From: Alphaproteobacteria bacterium
GTDB taxonomy: Bacteria > Pseudomonadota > Alphaproteobacteria > UBA828
DNA length: 64,000 bases
Direction of reading: 5' to 3'
Assembly: GCA_965214705.1 (NCBI GenBank)
Contig: OZ243972.1
Location: forward strand, 2,624,001 to 2,688,000
Below, piece after piece: positions 1,938-22,064 of this stretch. Within the stretch, counting starts at the first letter, position 1. Each line of letters starts with the position of its first letter. The notes under the pieces were generated by a model. That model did not search any database, was not told where the DNA came from, and was given only the letters and a program-made list of their open reading frames with translations. The position numbers and the translations under genes were made by a program.

Positions 1938-3908
1938 CCGAACTTCCCCAGCAGATATTGAGCTAAGTTGTTGCGGTGGCTTTCCAAACCACCGTTTCGC
2001 GGAGTCGCGTACTGGGTACGCTACAGGCTGACGCCAAGCAGATCGAGCGCCTGGCGCTGTACCGGCGTCGGCTTGGTGACCAGATCGAAGGGCGGTGCTC
2101 CGGCGAGTTTCGGTTGAACGCGGTTCCTGGCGATGGTCGCCAAATCATCGAGGAGCGTGCGGAAGCTGTGCACCGGCATCCCGTCTGGCGTGCGTTTGCC
2201 GGCGGCCTTGCGACGGGCGGAGGGCGAGGGCTTTGCCGGTGAGACGATGGAAGCGCGCGCGGCGTCCGCAGCGGCCGGGTCGTCCTCGTCGAACAGGATG
2301 GGGGCGAGCCTTTGGCGCATGTGCCATTCGACGTGGTAGGCGAGCATGCACAGCAGCACGTGGGCGCGCACGCGCTCGGGGCGGTAGTGGTGGATGGGCC
2401 GCACCTTGAGGTCGACGGTCTTGACGCTGCGGAAGGCGCGCTCGATGCGGCTCAATCCCTTGTAGGCGCGCACCGTGTCCTCGGCTCCGAGCTCGCCCTC
2501 GGGCACGCTGGTGCGGATGACGTAGAGGCCATCGAGCGCCGCCTCCTCGGCGATCCGCTCCCGGTTGCGCTGCCAGGTGAAGCCGTCATCGGCGATCTCC
2601 AGCTCGAAGTGCTTGGCGACCTTGTGCTTGCCGATGACCTTGCCCACGCGCAGGCCGATCTTGTCCTTGCCGGCGAGGCGGCGCTTGGCGCGCCGTGTTG
2701 CCGCTCGGATCTCGTCGAGGTCGCCCTCGGTGGCCTGGAGCAGGGCCTCGCGCTTGCGCGCCCTCTCGACGGCGAGCAGCGGGTTGCGGCAGGCGATCAG
2801 GCGTTCGCCGGGGAAGTCGGGATGATGGATCTCGGCCAGGTCGCGTTCGTCGAAGAGCGAGGGCTGCAGCGTTCCGCTGGAGGCCAGCTCCCGGATCGCC
2901 GGCGCCCGCAGCGCGCTGATCCACTCCAACCCGGCCGGCTTCACCTCCTCGCGGATGCGCGCCTCGGTGAGCATGCCGCGATCGCCCACCAGCACCACCC
3001 GCGAGAGGCCGAAGCGCCGGCGCAGCTTGTCGATCTGGGAGCCCAGGGTGGCCGGATCGGCGGTGTTGCCCTCGAACACCTCCACCGCCACCGGGCAGCC
3101 CTGCGCGTTGCACAGGAGCCCGAACACGATCTGCAGCTTGCCGCGCTTGCCGTCGCGGGAGTAGCCGTGATGCGCCAGCGGGCAGCAGCGCCCCTCCAGC
3201 CATGTCGAGGTGACGTCGTAGAGTACCAGAGCGCCGTCCTCGAGGTGACGCTCGGCCAGACGCCGTTCGATCCTGCCCTGGCGCTCAAGCAGCCAGTCCA
3301 TCGCCTGGTAGAGTTCGTCTTCGTCGACCTCGCCCAGGTCGAGGGCCTCGCCGAGGCCGCAGCTCAGGGTGTCGCCGCTGAGCCCGCGTGCGGTGGCGAG
3401 CTTCGAGCGCGGCGCCACGATGCGGGCGACGATCATCGCCGCCGCGAGGTCGCGCAGCCGCGAGCGCCTGGCCGCGATCAGCCGTTCCAGACCGAGGCCG
3501 CGCAGAGCCCCGAGCACCGCTGCGACATGGCCGAAGGGACGCGAGCGGGTGATGTCGAAGCCGTCGTCCTCGCGGCGCTTCTCGCCGCGGGGCACAGCGG
3601 TTCCGCCGCGCAAGAGGATGCGCAGGCCCTCGACCAGGTGCGGGGGCCACCTGGAGAGGTTGGCGAGGGTGCGCTTTCTGATTTTTCCGCCTTCGCGCCA
3701 TGATTCGCGCAGGAGGATTGCGGGGGGTGAGTTCCGGTTTGGGACGCTTTCGATATACATGGGGACGGATCATAGTGCCTGACCCGCAAAATATCAACGC
3801 CCCATCCTCATTTACATGGGTACACTTTGCATCCGCACCAACGGCCGATACGTCCGCAAAAACAAAGACTTATGCCCGAAAATCAGCGAAATTCTGGGGG
3901 AAGTTCGG
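1938..3908 (-). mobile_element. IS1634-family insertion sequence, complete
   Basis: Terminal inverted repeats CCGAACTTCCCC / GGGGAAGTTCGG; 6-bp target duplication TTTAAC at 1932-1937 and 3909-3914. Confidence 0.93.
2021..3760 (-). CDS. IS1634-family DDE transposase (579 aa)
   Basis: N-terminus LLRESWREGGKIRKRTLANLS; motifs LYDVTSTWLEG, GYSRDGKRGKLQI, VGDRGM, IERAFRSVK, RPIHH. Confidence 0.95.
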   Translation of the reverse strand: MYIESVPNRNSPPAILLRESWREGGKIRKRTLANLSRWPPHLVEGLRILLRGGTAVPRGEKRREDDGFDITRSRPFGHVAAVLGALRGLGLERLIAARRSRLRDLAAAMIVARIVAPRSKLATARGLSGDTLSCGLGEALDLGEVDEDELYQAMDWLLERQGRIERRLAERHLEDGALVLYDVTSTWLEGRCCPLAHHGYSRDGKRGKLQIVFGLLCNAQGCPVAVEVFEGNTADPATLGSQIDKLRRRFGLSRVVLVGDRGMLTEARIREEVKPAGLEWISALRAPAIRELASSGTLQPSLFDERDLAEIHHPDFPGERLIACRNPLLAVERARKREALLQATEGDLDEIRAATRRAKRRLAGKDKIGLRVGKVIGKHKVAKHFELEIADDGFTWQRNRERIAEEAALDGLYVIRTSVPEGELGAEDTVRAYKGLSRIERAFRSVKTVDLKVRPIHHYRPERVRAHVLLCMLAYHVEWHMRQRLAPILFDEDDPAAADAARASIVSPAKPSPSARRKAAGKRTPDGMPVHSFRTLLDDLATIARNRVQPKLAGAPPFDLVTKPTPVQRQALDLLGVSL

Positions 3909-15128: not shown

Positions 15129-17489
15129 ATGGACGCGGCCACGAACGTTTCATTCGGCTGGCCTCGCGGCGACACCTTCGCGATGGCCATGGTCCTGGCC
15201 CAGATCGAGGACCAGTGCCGTAATTTCATCGGGGGACCGGGCGCAGGGTCACTGGAGCATGTTGTGGAGTTCACAGCCGAGGCACGCTATCCGAGCCAGA
15301 TCTGGGAGGTAGAAGTACCGCTCCGTTCCAATCGATTTGCCTCGGACGCCGACGTGGCAGCCCTGCGCGCCGATTTCCACAAGGTCCACGAAGATATTTT
15401 CGCCATCGCAGATACGAAATCGGAGATCGAGATTGTCGGCTGGCGCGCGAACGTGCGCTGCACACTCCGAGAGGGCAAGGATAGGCGGCTGGTCGAAGAT
15501 GCCGGCGATTTCCACTCATCCGCGCGCAGGACGGTCTACCTGCCGGATGTCGGCAAGATCGAGGCAAAGGTTGTCCGCCTCGAAGCGATCGACCGGGGCG
15601 TCATTGTAGAGGGGCCGGCGATCATCGAATCGTCCTTCACCACCGTGGTGGTCGAGCCGGGCGCTGCTGTGGAGAGGCGCGCTTCGGGCAGCCTGATGAT
15701 CACGCCCCCTGCTCCGGCTGCCAAGGAGGTCTCGACGCTGGGCAGCCTCGATGGCGTACAATTGGCCATACTCAACAAACGCATGGAGGCACTTTCGGCC
15801 AAGATGGCCAACACGCTGCTGCGCACCGGACGATCCGGCGTGCTGAACAGCGCGCGCGATTTCTCGTGCTGTATCGTGACGGCCGAACACCAGCTAATCT
15901 GCGCCTCCGAGAGCCTGCCCGTTCACGTGCTGCGCGGCGCCGACCTGATGTGCGCTTCCATGAAGGAGTTCCACCCCGAGGTCGCACGCGGCGACGCGTT
16001 TCTGCACAACTCGCCCTACCACGGCAACACGCACCCCGCCGACCACACGATCCTGCTCCCTGTGATCGACGACGGCGGCATCCACCGCTTCACCATGGTA
16101 GCCAAGGCGCATCAGGCCGATTGCGGCAACTCGATTCCCACGACTTATCACGGTGGCGCGCGCGATGTGTATCAAGAGGGAGCGCTGATCTTTCCTGCCG
16201 TCCAAATTCAACGCGACTACAAGGACATCGACGACATCATCCGCATGTGCCGGCTGCGCATCCTCGTGCCCGACCAGTGGTGGGGCGACTATCTCGCCAT
16301 GTTGGGTTCCGCCCGCATCGGCGAGCGCGAGATGCTGGCCCCCGGCAAGGAGGTCGGCTGGGACACGCTCGAGCGCTTCTCGGCGCAGTGGATGGACTAT
16401 TCCGAGCAGCTCATGGCCGAGGCGATCGAGAAGATGCCGGAGGGCCGCGCGACTTGCGAGAGCCGGCACGACCCCTTCCCTAACGCTGAGGAGGGCATTC
16501 CGCTGCAAGCCGTGGTCGAGACGCGGCCCAAGGACGGCATCATCGAGGTGGACTTGCGCGACAACCCGGACAGCTATCCGTGCGGACTCAATCTGAGTCG
16601 GGCAAGCTCAGAGAGCAACGCTCTGCTCGCCGTGTTCAACGGAATTCCGGACCAAGTGCCGTGTAACGAGGGCTCGTTCCGCCGTATCAAGGTGCACTTG
16701 CGCGAGGGCAGCGTCGCGGGCATCGCGGTCCATCCGACGAGCTGCTCGGTGGCAACGACCAATGTCGCCGACCGCGTGGGCAATGCCGTGTCGCGCGCGA
16801 TCGCCAATCTCGGTGACGGCTTTGGCATGGCGAGCACGGGCTCGCTCCAGCCACCCTCGCTCGGCGTCATTTCGGGTGTAAGCGAGAAGACGCGCGGGCC
16901 TTACGTGAACCAGATCTTTCTCGGTTGGGGTGGCGGTGCGGCGGCACCGCATTGCGACGCCTGGATCTCCATCGGCCATATGGGCAATGGCGGTGCTTGC
17001 CATCAGGATAGCGTGGAGCTCGACGAGATGCGCTTTCCGTTGATCGTGGTCGGTCGACACTACGTGACGGACAGCGGTGGCTTCGGGCGCACCCGAGGCG
17101 GTGAAGCCATGTATTCGGAGTTCGGGCCCACCGAAGCGGACATCGAGGTCGGCTTTGTGAGCGATGGCAACATATCGGCTCCGGAAGGGGCCCGAGGCGG
17201 CGGGCCGGGCGCACGTTCCAATCAGTTCCGCCGTGCTCCCAATGGCGATCTCCACCAGCTGGAACCCTGCTCCCAAGCGATCATCTCGCTCGGCCACACC
17301 ATCGTGTCCTATTCTTGCGGCGGTGGCGGTTACGGTTCGCCGCTTGAACGTGCGCCCCAGAAGGTGGCGAGCGACGTGCGCGAGGGGTGGGCTTCCGTCG
17401 AAGCTGCACGTGAGATTTACAAGGTCGTCGTCAGCGCGGACGGTGAACTCGACAAGGCCGCGACAGACGCACTGCGCCGCTTCGGATAG
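15129..17489 (+). pseudogene. 5'-truncated fused hydantoinase A/B (oxoprolinase-family) gene
   Basis: Only the A-subunit tail (ARYPSQIWEVEV, GPAIIES..TTVVV) precedes a complete B domain (DFSCCI, NSPYHGNTHPAD, AHQADCG, GGGGYGSPLER). The A-type ATP-binding motifs are absent. Confidence 0.8.
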
Positions 17490-17517
17490 CGTAGAACTCG
17501 GGCATAGGCTGCCGCCG

Positions 17518-17544
17518 AAAACTGTCCCGCCTCAGGGGCCCACT
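17518..17544 (+). repeat. Remnant IS3-family right inverted repeat, cut by IS110-B
   Basis: AAAACTGTCCCGCCTCAGGGGCCCACT resembles IS3/IS150-type ends (AACTGTCC...GGGG.CA.TCCA) as recalled, minus the terminal bases. Confidence 0.5.
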
Positions 17545-17987
17545 TCTGTAATGGGGCGTTTCCCGTCAAGCTCGATTTTCAACGGATCATTGTCGCGACA
17601 ATCGGTTGTTTTCCTGGCGTGGTGTAGGGGGCTCCTTCGGCTTGGCTGTGAGGCGCCGGCGAGGCGCGGAGGAGGATGCCCGCGTCAGGTTCAATGTGGC
17701 CGACCGCATTGGTCTTGTGCTTGACCAACGTCTTGAGTCCTTCGCCGGGTTCTCGCTTCTGTCCGTGGTCAGCGCATTGGCTGCCGACGTCATGCCCCGT
17801 CCAAATCGGTTCCCCAGTGCCTATCTCCAAAGCGTGCTCGAACGCGACAGGTCGGTTCGGCAAACAAGTGGGCCCACGTGCATCATCGGGGACCGCGTCC
17901 CGGCGAGGGGACACGGGGGGATCGCCCCCCTTCAGGCGCGGCTCTTTCCTCCTCTCCTCGCTGATTGCCGATGGGATGCAGCCGTGC
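17545..17987 (-). ncRNA. Putative bridge/seek RNA region of IS110-B
   Basis: Contains GGGCCCACT (complementary to its flank) and ACAGAAG (identical to its own end). Boundaries are approximate. Confidence 0.65.
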
Positions 17988-18216
17988 CTATGCCATCTGA
18001 AACGCCATCGCCTCGTCGCGCGTGAAGCGGAACTCGGTGCCATCCCGCCACATCTGGTGGAGCACCACGCCGATACGCCGGGCCAAGGCAACGGTCGCGC
18101 GCTTCTTGCCCCGAAGCTTTGACAGACGTAGCGCCCAGCCCTTCAGATCCTATGGGGCCGACTCGGAGACCGGCACTACGGTGCCGTTCTCGCTAGACCT
18201 CATCAGGAGACAAGAG

Positions 18217-19413
18217 ATGTCCCCAACGAACGAGACCGCCGCGCCGGTCAACGCAGAGCATAGCACGCTGTACGTTGCCATCGAGATCAGCGGAAAGAGC
18301 TGGGTGGTGGGAGTGAAGAGCCCTGCCAGTGATCGGATCGGGCTGCATTCACTGGGGCCAGTGGACGCGGCGACGGTCGAAGGGCTCAAGGAATTGATCG
18401 AGAAGCAGCGAGCCAAGGCTGAACAGGCTCTCGGCCGAGAGGTGCGTGTTCTGTGTTGCTACGAGGCGGGCTACCAGGGCTTCTGGCTTGTGCGCTGGTT
18501 AGATCAGGAGATGTCCATTGAGACAGTGGTGCTCGATCCGGCGAGTCTGCTGGTGAACCGAAAAGCGAAGCAGCGCAAGACGGATCGGATCGATGCGAAG
18601 AAGATGGTGCGCGCGCTACTGGCGCACGACCGAGGCGACGCTGCAGTGCTGAGCCGGGTGCGGGTGCCGAGCGTGGAGGAAGAGGACCGCAAGCGCCTGC
18701 TTCGTGAGCGTCGGCGGCTGGTGAAAGAGCGGACCTCACTGACGAACTCGATCAAAGGGCTGCTCAAGCTGCAAGGGGTCTTCGACCTGGCCCCCCGAGC
18801 CAAGGAGTTCGAGGAGGAGTTCGCGGAAGTGGTGACCGCGTACGGCTCACCGTTCCCGCCGCGGGCGCGTAAGGAGATCGAGCGGCTCAAGGAGAGGTTG
18901 TCCTTGGTGGAACGACAGCTCGCAGATGTCGAGGCCGAGCGCGACGCGGTCGCACGGTCGGGAGCCGACCTCCCGATCACGGATGTCTCGGAGGGGAGCG
19001 ATAAACAGGCGGCGGCGAAGATCGCAACGCTGGCCCGGCTCAAGGGGATCGGCAAAAACGATGCGACCCTGCTCACCAATGAGATTTTCTATCGCGACTT
19101 CCGAAACCGCCGCGAACTCGCGAGCTGGGTCGGCCTGGCGCCAACCCCGTGGGCGAGCGGTGACACGCACCGAGACCAAGGGATCGGCCGAGATGGCCCT
19201 GGCTGGGTCCGATCTCAACTCATCGAAATGGCGTGGCGCTGGCTGCGCCATCAGCCCGATAGTGCACTTAGCGAGTGGTTCGAAAAGCGCACTGCTGGCG
19301 GGCGCGGGCGCATCCGTCGAGTGATGGTTGTAGCACTTGCCCGGAAGCTGCTCATCGCCTTGTGGCGGTTCTCTGAAACCGGTCTCGTGCCGACGGGCGC
19401 CAGGATCGCCTGA
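18217..19413 (+). CDS. IS110-family recombinase (398 aa)
   Basis: RuvC-like DEDD variant (VAIEIS, CYEAG, KTDRIDA) and serine motif GLAPTPWASG; AGGAGA RBS. Confidence 0.94.
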   Translation: MSPTNETAAPVNAEHSTLYVAIEISGKSWVVGVKSPASDRIGLHSLGPVDAATVEGLKELIEKQRAKAEQALGREVRVLCCYEAGYQGFWLVRWLDQEMSIETVVLDPASLLVNRKAKQRKTDRIDAKKMVRALLAHDRGDAAVLSRVRVPSVEEEDRKRLLRERRRLVKERTSLTNSIKGLLKLQGVFDLAPRAKEFEEEFAEVVTAYGSPFPPRARKEIERLKERLSLVERQLADVEAERDAVARSGADLPITDVSEGSDKQAAAKIATLARLKGIGKNDATLLTNEIFYRDFRNRRELASWVGLAPTPWASGDTHRDQGIGRDGPGWVRSQLIEMAWRWLRHQPDSALSEWFEKRTAGGRGRIRRVMVVALARKLLIALWRFSETGLVPTGARIA

Positions 19414-19726
19414 ATCGTGAGACCGTTCCGTTCTTGCGTCAGCCGGACGCGGCCGGCGCTGGGCCGGGTGGCGTGTGGCCGGAGAACTGGCGGGCTGAAA
19501 GACGCCGACCTTCAGATGGGCCCCGCCTCCGGAACGCTGTGCCCGCAGCAAGCGGGATTGTGGGATGGAGCCAGCGTCTCGCCGCTGGCAACCGCCCGGA
19601 TAAGAGTTGGGTACGCGCAAAGCCGTGTGACCGGTGCAACAAGCGTTCCGATCTGGCAAGAGTAGCCGCCGATCCTGCGAACCCAGGGAGGCCGACACAT
19701 GTGGTAGCTGGTTCTGAATTTCTTGT
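19414..19726 (+). ncRNA. Putative bridge/seek RNA region of IS110-A
   Basis: Contains GAACTGGC and CCTTCAG (match the two target flanks) and ATAAGAG (matches its own end) within stem-flanked loops. Boundaries are approximate. Confidence 0.72.
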
Positions 19727-19970
19727 TTGACATTCTACAGCCCCATAAGAGCCAGTTCGGTCCTGCGCGGTTCAGCATCACCGTGGCGGCCTGATAGAGC
19801 GCCGTGCGCAGAGTTGCGTCGCCGCACTTCGTGATTCCGCCGACAATATCTCGTTCGCCGGATTGGTCCCGTCCCGGCGTCAGCCCCACCCAGGGGCCGA
19901 CATCCTTCGATCTTCGGAACCGATCGGGATCGTCAATCGCCGACATGAAGGTCAGCGCCACTGCGGCTAA

Positions 19971-20063
19971 TACGGTCTGACGGGGAACAGCAAACGTCTC
20001 AGCGGCTTCCGCTACTGGGTCATCCGCCACGGGCGCAAGGCGCTCGCGCGCCGCAGCCGCTAG
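19971..20063 (+). pseudogene. Short relic of group II intron maturase domain X
   Basis: YGLTGNSKRLSGFRYWVIRHGRKALARRSR*, which parallels the domain X seen in the 1240-1920 fragment. Confidence 0.6.
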
Positions 20064-21709
20064 CCCGGATTTCTCACGAGCGTCCATCGTTGGGTTGTTT
20101 GGTGTTTGTCGTGGGTTTGGTTAGAGAGTTGCGGTGTGGGCCGGGTAATGGCGCAGGAGTGGCGGTGGCGCCGGGGGCGCGGTTGAGGCTGGAGCGGGTT
20201 TTTGGTTGTTGGCGGGAGGGTGGCAGCGGGCCTGAGGCTCGGCTCAGGTGCATAATCGGGCGTGAGCACGTGCGAACTCGGGCGCGTGGGGTGCGCTTGA
20301 GGCCATGGCGATGCGGATGCGGCGGGTACTCAGGCGGACCTGGGCGCCGATCTTCAGCAGCTTGAGGCGGATCGAGCCGCAGGTAGCGCGGGCAAGGCGA
20401 GTTCCGGCGAGCGCGATGCGCCTGAGCGCTGCGAGCAGCACGTAGGCCATGGCGGCGAACCAGAGACGGAGCTGGTTGGCGCGCATGGTCTGAGCCGAGG
20501 TGCGGTCGGCGAAGAGGTCGAGCTGGCACTCCTTGATGCGGTTCTCCATGTCGCCGCGGGCGCAGTAGAGGGTCTCGTAGAGTTCCCGCCGGTCGATGGC
20601 GGCCGCGCTCAGCGAGGTGACGACGAAGCGGGGGTTGGCGCGGCCCGGCATCCACTCCGCCTTGCCGACGACACGGCGCGGGCGCGACCAAGTCTTGCAC
20701 GTGCGGTAGCGGAACTCGGTGAACAGCCGCGCCGGCTGGCCGCTCTCCCGCGAGCGGGCTTCGGCCAGGTCCAGGGCCGGTTGCAGGCGGTCCGTGAGCC
20801 GCGGGTTCCGGGCGAGCCCGAAGACATAGTCCACCCCGTTCGCCTCGCACCAGGCCATCAGTCCCTCGCGGGCGAAGCCAGAGTCTGCGCGCAGCACGAT
20901 CTCGACGGCGGGCCAGCGGGCGCGGATGCGCGCGACGATGCGCGCCACCTCTTCGGCCGCGCCGGCGCTGGCGTCGATGTCGGCCCGCCTCAGCTTGGCG
21001 GCCAGCAGGTGATCGCCGCAGAAGATGTAGAGCGGCAGGTAGCAGTAGCAGTCGTAGTAGCCGTGGAAGAAGCGGCCTTCCTGATGGCCGTGCAGCGGGT
21101 CGTCGGTGGCGTCCAGATCGAGGACCAACCGCTCAGGGGCCTGCCCGTGGGCGTCGAGGAAGAGATCGACGAAGAGCGTCTCGATCGCCTCAGGCTCATG
21201 ACCGATCCGGCGATAGCGATGGGCGCCCGAAGGCGCGTGCTCCAGCCGGTTCAGCGTCGACTTGCCCGCAAGCGGCGCACAGCCCGCACGCCCGGCCTCC
21301 AAACGCCCCAGCACCACCCCCAGCACGGGGTCGTGGCGCAGCGCGTCGTGGTCGATCAAGTCCTCGTAGCCCAGCGCGATCCCGAACACCCGCTGGCCCA
21401 CCAGGGTGGCAACGTCGTGCACCACACGAGAGGCCGCGCGCCCGTCCGAGAAGCAGGCGGCGAAGCAATCCACCAGTCCGATCGCCCGGTCCGTGGCGCC
21501 CAGCAGCAGGGCGCCCGCGTCCGAGGTCATCACCCCGCCGCCGAAGTCGGCCACCACATCACGCCCGTTCAGGCGTGCAAACTGCATCGCGGGCGGGCTA
21601 CACTCTGCAGGCATCGGGGAACTCCTCTGCAGCCGGTGAAGTCTTTGTTGCAGAAGAACTTTCTCACGAGCAGAGCCCCGATGCACACCATACTCGTGAG
21701 AAATCCGGG
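20064..21709 (-). mobile_element. IS1380-family element, complete
   Basis: 17-bp perfect terminal repeat CCCGGATTTCTCACGAG; CTAG duplicated at 20060-20063 and 21710-21713. Confidence 0.93.
20244..21614 (-). CDS. IS1380-family transposase
   Basis: TSDAGALLL, LDLDATDDPLHGHQEG, LRADSGF, YCARGDMENRIKE. Confidence 0.95.
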   Translation of the reverse strand: MPAECSPPAMQFARLNGRDVVADFGGGVMTSDAGALLLGATDRAIGLVDCFAACFSDGRAASRVVHDVATLVGQRVFGIALGYEDLIDHDALRHDPVLGVVLGRLEAGRAGCAPLAGKSTLNRLEHAPSGAHRYRRIGHEPEAIETLFVDLFLDAHGQAPERLVLDLDATDDPLHGHQEGRFFHGYYDCYCYLPLYIFCGDHLLAAKLRRADIDASAGAAEEVARIVARIRARWPAVEIVLRADSGFAREGLMAWCEANGVDYVFGLARNPRLTDRLQPALDLAEARSRESGQPARLFTEFRYRTCKTWSRPRRVVGKAEWMPGRANPRFVVTSLSAAAIDRRELYETLYCARGDMENRIKECQLDLFADRTSAQTMRANQLRLWFAAMAYVLLAALRRIALAGTRLARATCGSIRLKLLKIGAQVRLSTRRIRIAMASSAPHAPEFARAHARLCT

Positions 21710-21713
21710 CTAG

Positions 21714-22064
21714 CATCGAGGTGGCGCGCATGACGGCCCGCCCTGGTCGATCTCTTCTGCCGCAGCTTCGCGGCCCCACCTGCCGCCATCACGCTGGATA
21801 TCGACGATACCTGCGATGCCGTGCACGGCCACCAGCAGCTCTCGCTCTTTCATGCCCACCACGACACGCGCTGCTTCCTCCCCGTCCACGTCTACCAATC
21901 CGCTCACCAGCGCTGAGTTCACCACTCTCAGGTTACGCCTGTTCAAGATCGTCGCCCGCGTCGTCGAAAAGGTTACACACATCCAAATCCACTCCGCCTC
22001 GCCCTGTCCCGACACCGCCCTCTTCCGCCTGCTCGCAGGTCGCCTCTCCGCAGCAAGCCCCTGA
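21714..22064 (+). pseudogene. Internally deleted IS1380-family transposase relic
   Basis: ITLDIDDTCDAVHGHQQLSLFHAHHDTRCFLPVHVY joined to the C-terminal AEFTTLRLRLFKIVARVVE...SPCPD. Confidence 0.78.

Follow-up and report, generated by a model that had tools for sequence, protein, structure and literature searches.

An IS1111-type insertion sequence with a putative 3'-end guide RNA matching its own insertion site, mostly within the transposase gene of another IS110-family element

This study concerns a stretch of 64,000 nucleotides (nt) from the genome of an alphaproteobacterium (GenBank assembly GCA_965214705.1, contig OZ243972.1, positions 2,624,001 to 2,688,000; hereafter the window) and, within it, an insertion sequence (IS) of 1605 base pairs (bp) here named element A. 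Element A (positions 18147-19751, plus strand) is an intact member of family IS110 with the layout of the IS1111 type. Very probably, its 3' end specifies a guide RNA that is some 195 nt long, has two domains and is comparable to the seekRNAs of IS1111 elements, with guides set to the element's own insertion site. This site lies mostly within the transposase gene (tnpB) of a second IS110-family, IS1111-type element, named B, and A itself is in all likelihood active or was so until recently. The coordinates of the main features are given in Table 1.

Element A and its insertion sites

Element A is composed of a left end of 70 nt, an open reading frame (ORF) for a transposase of 398 amino acids (aa; TnpA, positions 18217-19413) and a non-coding right end of 338 nt. 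The longer non-coding region lying 3' of the transposase gene (338 nt, versus 70 nt on the 5' side) is a trait of IS1111 elements and their seekRNAs. The subterminal inverted repeats are located five bases inside each end and measure 7 bp, which is the lower limit of the 7-17 bp given for the IS1111 group (PMC11208160; this paper and PMC11187229 are cited throughout for parts of their content). Relatives of A displayed the pair ATGAGGC and GCCTCAT at these positions.

The host genome (7.9 Mb in three contigs) contained three full copies of A; compared with the window copy, one was identical and the other displayed 3 differences in 1605 positions. A fourth insertion was represented by an 86-bp left-end remnant adjoining GGCCTTCAG of a B gene. 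Among the genomes searched, only the window's own contained an A with this precise 3' end. All four insertions had occurred at the same type of site, (CC)TTCAG|CCAGTTC. The window copy is bordered by CCCTTCAG and CCAGTTCGGT, the third full copy by GCCTTCAG and CCAGTTCGGC, and the full copy located outside B by AGTTCAG and CCAGTTCTCG. The earlier note on this DNA had suggested verifying whether other copies are flanked by CCTTCAG and CCAGTTC and whether they fall in IS110 genes. The left flank TTCAG was common to the four insertions, and its longer form CCTTCAG occurred in three of them. Likewise, three of the four lay inside B transposase genes, where they interrupted codons N-W-L-K, towards the end of the Transposase_20 domain of TnpB. 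The remaining one, a full copy, was found about 45 codons into an unrelated ordinary gene, for which Pfam gave nothing beyond weak AAA/helicase-like matches below threshold; its site agreed at 12 of 14 positions. Since the B flanks of the two B-borne copies diverged (23 differences in 200 nt on the left, an indel on the right) and the A copies themselves were near-identical, the window copy and the second B-borne copy are separate insertions rather than a single composite.

The empty site, which the earlier note had placed at codons N-W-L-K of B, was retrieved in two ways. The 14-mer CCTTCAGCCAGTTC occurred uninterrupted at two places in the host genome, both in B-type transposase genes. In addition, contigs from three public runs joined position 18146 straight to B-paralogue sequence starting with CCAGTTCGG or CCAATTCGG. 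Comparison of empty and filled sites shows that A inserts without target duplication, the dinucleotide core AG (CT on the opposite strand) being all that target and element end have in common. Among the four runs covered, one (X1) also contained a contig of 2222 nt that linked the left flank of A in the window (17600-18119, 1 difference in 520) to B-paralogue sequence (corresponding to 19768-19926) without A. It may stem from a strain or subpopulation in which the insertion is missing, or else from an assembly path that jumped from one repeat copy to another, as can happen with such contigs.

A search for the 14-mer in the host genome and 40 related genomes yielded 18 matches in 7 of the 41 genomes (2 for the reversed control). 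Among the 12 loci that were fetched, ten lay in TnpB-family genes, at the same codons, and two elsewhere. The ten TnpB-family loci (70-100% aa identity) comprised eight full-length genes (86-100%), a C-terminal fragment and a 70% copy, probably frameshifted, in the host's own genome. The 14-mer was kept across B copies that differed elsewhere in nucleotide sequence. A lands mostly in B because the 14-mer CCTTC-AG-CCAGTTC is, in the genus, almost confined to the N-W-L-K codons of B.

The putative guide RNA

The short strings on which the earlier note had based its proposal of a guide RNA were all found: CCTTCAG at 18140-18146 and again at 19509-19515, GAACTGGC at 19484-19491, GTGGGAT at 19560-19566, ATAAGAG at 19600-19606 and CCAGTTC at 19752-19758. 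The putative 3' target guide has the sense of the left flank, the core and the first two nucleotides of A, so that it would pair with the bottom strand. It is preceded by a segment complementary to the top strand, the putative 5' target guide. This order is the one described for IS1111 seekRNAs, which are encoded in the non-coding region downstream of the transposase gene with the top-strand-complementary segment first, ISEc21 and IS621 being reversed (PMC11187229, PMC11208160). When the 338-nt end was shuffled 20000 times with its dinucleotides preserved, 305 occurrences of the left-flank 7-mer and 521 of the reverse complement of the right-flank one were obtained. The two together, in the correct order and within 40 nt, were obtained only once.

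A clear relationship was observed between the guides and the flanks of related elements. Relatives at about 80% nt identity occurred within the host genome (L004, L005, L006/L007 and L008), and a scan of one genome per species uncovered 27 further loci with 60-83% protein identity. A recognisable hairpin and at least one end were present in 21 of these, and the six others (L033, L046, L047, L051, L052 and L056) were left unscored. The two target-guide segments stood out as two hypervariable blocks in an otherwise conserved non-coding end, each matching the flanks of its own element (21 of the 27 loci). For the six variable positions of the 3' guide before the invariant AG, cognate pairs displayed a mean of 4.7 matches (19 distinct pairs, range 3-6), against 1.6 for non-cognate pairs (n=336, none above 4). 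Similarly, the seven positions of the 5' guide, taken in the best of four registers, gave a mean of 6.0 for 23 distinct cognate pairs and 3.0 for non-cognate ones (n=500; three reached 6 and none 7).

The register of the 5' guide varied within a single clade (19483-19492; alignment columns 74-86): 14 of 23 elements displayed 7 nt followed by C and an extra base, which A and four others did not have. At locus L038 (L038:2687-3420), the 3' non-coding end was found twice, 399 bp apart, as a partial tandem, the first copy ending in CATAAGAA and not in CATAAGAG.

The fold of the RNA was examined by RNAalifold and pair counts on 21 aligned non-coding ends, after L036 (almost identical to L034) and the partial tandem copy of L038 had been left out of 23. 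The consensus comprised 57 pairs with 97.2% of cells paired, and 20 of the 57 pairs displayed compensatory change. None of 500 column shuffles reached any of the five measures used, and sliding the partners by 1-3 columns gave at most 7 covarying pairs. In the target-binding domain, the outer stem was 100% paired and 4 of its 9 pairs covaried, the inner hairpin being invariant; the two loops between them bear GAACUGGC (19481-19492) and CCUUCAGAU (19507-19518). In the donor-binding domain, helices 6, 8 and 9 contained 3, 3 and 4 covarying pairs, respectively, and helix 7 none (21 sequences). The stretch GGAUAAGAGUUG at 19598-19609 was single-stranded.

This stretch harbours the putative right-end donor guide. 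The hexamer following GGA (TAAGAG, TAAAAG, TACAAG or TATAAG) was identical to the last six bases of the element in 21 of 21 cases. The match was also observed in element E, a more distant relative described below. Among six plasmid relatives, three displayed an exact match (ATATGAG, ATACGAG and ATGTGAG) and two a match exact except for the last core base; the right end of the sixth was not found within 480 nt.

A left-end guide had been proposed at GTGGGAT (19560-19566), by wobble pairing with the left end. This candidate was rejected, as it mostly forms the 5' strand of a stem, in which 19562-19568 is paired with 19592-19597 and compensatory changes occur (in five sequences, both partners of the pair at alignment columns 161 and 195 are changed). 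Moreover, relatives that keep the left end ATCCTAT have GGGGTAC or GGGGCAC at this place. The assignment was probably misplaced by about 6 nt, a better candidate being GGGAU(U) at 19554-19559. It would pair with the core G and ATCCT of the left end, including one G.T pair. Its position corresponds to that of the 5' target guide, and its next base can pair with the core G. Read by eye, the corresponding segment in E is GGUAU, with ATACC as the left end, and L088 combines GGGAU with the left end ATCCC. Its overlap with the 3' strand of hairpin 19542-19556 counts against it. These sequence matches make GGGAU(U) the probable left-end donor guide.

The boundaries of A, its site specificity, the RNA fold and the covariation of guides with flanks and element ends were thus demonstrated at the sequence level. 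As for the other proposals of the earlier note, the two target-matching segments stood against shuffles and non-cognate pairs, the comparative fold retrieved both the inner hairpin and the outer GGCC stem around them, and ATAAGAG was borne out as the right-end match. Its bridge- or seekRNA layout with a CT core was right as to the two domains and the core; the arrangement is that of IS1111 and its seekRNAs, not the left-end one of IS621.

Table 1. Features of element A and of the flanking B fragments (window positions)
Feature	Positions	Strand	Basis
B fragment: last 51 codons of tnpB (17993-18146) and part of the B 3' non-coding end	17739-18146	-	83% nt identity to positions 1405-1812 of the intact B region; tblastn to TnpB 284-347
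Left target half, CCTTC + core AG (CT on the minus strand)	18140-18146	+	Same string as the 3' guide
Element A	18147-19751	+	Ends set by empty sites and contig joints
Left subterminal inverted repeat, ATGGGGC	18152-18158	+	Complement of GCCCCAT, 19740-19746
Transposase gene tnpA, 398 aa; E23, E83, D123, D126; S314-G315	18217-19413	+	Pfam, NCBIfam, conserved columns
Putative guide (seek/bridge) RNA core; closing helix 19463-19468 / 19652-19657	19463-19657	+	Covariation
Putative target-binding domain; outer stem (contains GGCC) 19470-19480 / 19519-19527, inner hairpin 19493-19506	19470-19527	+	Covariation
Putative 5' target guide, GAACTGGC	19484-19491	+	Cognate guide/flank matching
Putative 3' target guide, CCUUC-AG-AU	19509-19517	+	Cognate guide/flank matching
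Putative donor-binding domain; closing helix 19530-19538 / 19642-19650; hairpins 19542-19556, 19562-19597, 19610-19632	19530-19650	+	
Candidate left-end donor guide, GGGAU(U)	19554-19559	+	Invariant in 21/21
Putative right-end donor guide, GGAUAAG-AG (sense of right end CATAAG + core AG)	19598-19606	+	Covariation with the right end
TTGACA, possible -35 of a circle-junction promoter (TTGAC invariant in 21/21 relatives)	19727-19732	+	18-20 nt from the right end
Right end GCCCCATAAG + core AG, including subterminal repeat GCCCCAT	19740-19751	+	
Right target half, CCAGTTC	19752-19758	+	Same beside all three full A copies
B fragment: tnpB codons ~223-305 (Transposase_20), cut off upstream	19752-20087	-	Pfam E 1.7e-17; tblastn 83% to TnpB 223-305

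Proposed mechanism and alternative readings

By homology with described systems, read-through from tnpA, or else a promoter created where the ends of a circular form join, would give rise to the RNA of A, which would then be bound by the transposase. The internal loop of the target domain may display the two guides on both sides of the small invariant hairpin, and the donor domain would read the joined ends of A through GGAUAAG-AG (right end) and, probably, GGGAU-U (left end). The RNA-bound transposase would align the circular donor with the target, by analogy with ISEc11 and IS621, and strand exchange would take place at the 2-nt core (AG on top, CT at the bottom), leading to insertion without duplication. 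By likeness to ISEc11 and ISEc21 (PMC11187229), a circle-junction promoter with TTGAC (19727-19731) as its -35 region is possible. A search by eye across the circle junction of A revealed no convincing -10 region at a spacing of 17-19 nt.

Could the matches be a chance similarity in a GC-rich non-coding end? They are short (7-8 nt), and the fold of the single sequence is not significant. Yet, the idea is refuted by the shuffles (1 in 20000), by the covariation of guides and flanks across elements and by the right-end guide matching in 21 of 21 cases, so that its probability is negligible. It is also very unlikely that the protein alone picks the target, the 3'-end matches being by-products such as flank remnants from past recombination. 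The guide role of the A RNA does rest on sequence comparison. However, the matching segments occupy fixed positions of a covarying fold, one in sense and the other in antisense to the target, and some 20 independent relatives show them changing in step with the flanks while the protein remains 60-83% identical. In experiments on ISEc11, ISEc21 and IS621, moreover, the RNA was required and could be reprogrammed (PMC11187229, PMC11208160).

More serious, although we consider it unlikely, is the view that A is RNA-guided and its link with B incidental: the guides would fit a sequence of 12-14 nt of which B is merely the commonest carrier, with no adaptation to B. The A insertion outside B is in line with this view, and so is the diversity of sites in close relatives, since the junctions of 21 relative loci fell in transposase domains (4), in ordinary genes (4) or in sequences with no Pfam match (13). 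Likewise, blastx of 43 relative flanks against IS110-family proteins gave only 5 matches, most of them away from the junction, which indicates that insertion of IS110 elements into one another is not a rule of the clade. Against it, hardly any exact 14-mer was found outside B-family genes (10 of the 12 fetched loci lay within them), and diverged B copies keep it. Members of the wider clade were also found in transposase genes, namely E (18 sites of IS91 type), L057, L040, L044 and L045 (see below).

The preferred reading, a guide RNA of the IS1111/seekRNA type set to a site mostly within B, is itself weakened by several observations. B is the main but not the sole target, one of the four insertions lying elsewhere. 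Folded on its own, segment 19455-19680 was no more stable than its shuffles (z = -0.12; 85 of 200 folded as well), and an Rfam scan of window positions 17000-21000, with E values up to 10, detected no relevant family, the sole match (eL15 leader, E 2.6) being due to chance. Six of the 27 related loci lacked a recognisable hairpin and end under the patterns used. Some cognate pairs were weak, i.e. the 5' guide of L004 (5/7) and the 3' guide of L057 (3/6); the 5' guide of L039 was a further weak case, with 5/7 in an odd register. L038 scored 4/7, although its flank follows a partial tandem copy and is probably not the original one. The 5' guide of A lies one base nearer the hairpin than in 14 of 23 relatives (offset 1 versus offset 2). 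As to the left-end guide, the close clade offers no variation in the left end, and beyond this clade full matches were limited to 3 of 8 lineages; by eye, four other lineages match a GGGAU-type guide at 4 of 5 positions and L083 does not match. Finally, the 398 aa of TnpA are outside the 330-350 aa of classical IS1111 transposases (PMC11187229); the IS1111 type of A refers to its layout.

Transposase, relatives and known systems

TnpA displayed both domains of the family, DEDD_Tnp_IS110 (PF01548, E 1.1e-9) and Transposase_20 (PF02371, E 5.9e-13), and matched the NCBIfam model NF033542 ('IS110 family RNA-guided transposase') with 192 bits for a cut-off of 140. A phmmer search with TnpA alone against solved structures returned nothing relevant. 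A profile was needed, and the one built from 58 clade members matched the solved transposases of IS621 (E 1.3e-12) and ISCro4 (E 2.6e-14); these matches span only the C-terminal domain with the Ser-Gly motif and the KTDxxDA segment, leaving the first catalytic position unaligned. In the C-terminal motif GLAPTPWASG, residues S314 and G315 were at least 90% conserved and aligned with the SG of IS621 and ISCro4. Residues E83, D123 and D126 were invariant in the 58-sequence alignment. The Glu noted earlier at the first catalytic position was confirmed as E23 (AIEISG), aligning with D8 of TnpB (GLDVS); the alignment thus gives TnpA a first catalytic residue that is acidic but not Asp. An alignment of 110 sequences, comprising A, TnpB and 108 representatives of clusters (355-425 aa), had E in this column in 88 cases, D in 17 and other residues in 5, which makes Glu a trait of the clade rather than a peculiarity of A.

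Element E (C3:550809-552469 of the host genome; 398 aa, Glu-first) shares 51% aa identity with A. It occurs at one fixed place, in the codons for the zinc-binding domain of an IS91-family transposase gene (Zn_Tnp_IS91 + Y2_Tnp). About 91 such sites were counted, 18 filled and about 73 empty (a target copy is found, for example, at L082:1347-2585), and the E RNA guides match them. E and five plasmid elements (44-49% aa identity) follow the same guide logic as A. The plasmid relatives, retrieved by tblastn against plasmids, were annotated only by the generic name 'IS110 family transposase'. The neighbours of L083, L084, L086 and L087, which belong to them, were often transposase genes (ISL3, IS6, IS91 and IS110), and L086 itself was inserted into a gene annotated 'transposase'. 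Closer to A, L057 (73-81% identical) lay between a Transposase_20 and a DEDD_Tnp_IS110 domain (L057:792-1373 and 2982-3260), both on the opposite strand. As the two gene halves flank it, L057 is a second IS110-family element inside an IS110-family gene. Loci L040, L044 and L045 adjoined rve-type transposase domains.

The junctions of E, L085 and L086 displayed a target core AA and, as read from the right-end guide, a donor core AG, with AG at the left junction and AA at the right one; their 5' target guides end in UU. These sequences fit a crossover between the two core bases together with a tolerated G.T pair at the core. Natural sites with mismatched cores might in this way map the crossover to a point between the core bases. 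The same tentative picture, which taken as a whole we regard as possible but doubtful, includes a left-end donor guide overlapping a hairpin strand and a clade of Glu-first elements of about 398 aa that would be habitual hyperparasites of other ISs, with guides repeatedly retuned to conserved coding segments of transposase genes. Should this last point be true, elements of the clade would act as a brake on other IS families in IS-rich genomes.

Element B was found intact in the host genome (about 1657 bp, C1:602265-603921). It displays a 13-bp subterminal repeat, TTGACA near the right end and a 3' end of 462 nt, and its gene (C1:602419-603459, 347 aa) holds the empty 14-mer. Candidate guides in this 3' end, GCGAGCGG and TACCAGAT, match the right flank of B (as reverse complement) and its left junction. 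In the window, insertion of A removes the last 42 codons of tnpB and shifts the guide-RNA region of B 1.6 kb away from the gene. To describe A as the parasite of a relative, as was done earlier, is fair insofar as three of four insertions lie in B; TnpA and TnpB are only 24.6% identical (over 305 aa), and one insertion interrupts an ordinary gene. B itself sits in another repeated sequence by a relaxase-like ORF (empty site C1:1342015-1342769). Just past the truncated upstream end of the B fragment, an IS1380-family transposase gene was found (20244-21779, minus strand; NF033539, 404 bits). As it adjoins the B fragment holding A, the locus is composed of three nested or abutted insertion sequences.

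The mechanism was described in 2024, and A is a good natural example that leaves it unchanged: RNA-guided targeting in IS110 and IS1111, natural retargeting and homing of ISEc21 into IS3-family transposase genes are already published (PMC11187229). Particular to A are a victim from the same superfamily and an IS110-sized, Glu-first transposase combined with an IS1111 layout. It adds a case of an IS110-family element homing into the transposase gene of another, and the same genome also holds its IS91-targeting cousin E; both bear on IS competition and on the finding of harmless landing sites in IS-rich genomes. Word searches of the literature, which do not amount to a review, retrieved no description of IS110-family elements that target transposase genes of their own family, and the supplementary target lists of PMC11187229 and PMC11208160 may hold cases. 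No experimental study of a branch of RNA-guided recombinases combining Glu-first catalysis with a 3'-end RNA appeared in the literature covered. With about 20 relatives displaying different guides and matching flanks, the clade constitutes a clean and internally controlled natural data set of guide retargeting.

Specialisation on another mobile element is also known from IS4321 and IS5075, members of family IS1111 that target the terminal repeats of Tn21-family transposons. A resembles them as an IS1111-type element with such a specialisation and differs in that it targets a coding sequence instead of a terminal inverted repeat. With ISEc21, A shares the behaviour of an RNA-guided IS preferring a conserved coding segment in the transposase gene of another IS. 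Yet, ISEc21 displays an upstream RNA, the opposite guide order and an IS3-family victim, whereas the victim of A is itself an IS110-family element of IS1111 type (PMC11187229).

Among elements studied at the level of the RNA, IS621 (Durrant et al. 2024, PMC11208160; structures including 8wt6) likewise has separate RNA domains for target and donor and a CT core on the strand opposite to tnpA. Its guides span the core, as the putative guides of A would. In contrast to IS621, the A RNA is located in the right end instead of left and upstream, the order of its guides in the loop is reversed, and several hairpins meet at a junction in its donor domain, where IS621 has a simple internal loop. The closest resemblance in layout is to ISEc11, ISKpn4, ISPst6 and ISPa11 (Siddiquee et al. 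2024, PMC11187229), with which A shares a long 3' non-coding region, a short left end and subterminal repeats. Like ISEc11-type IS1111 elements, it is site-specific without duplication and displays the same guide order, natural retargeting among relatives and, near the right end, a possible -35 region of a circle-junction promoter. It departs from them by a transposase of 398 instead of 330-350 aa, a repeat of only 7 bp and a Glu in place of the first Asp of DEDD.

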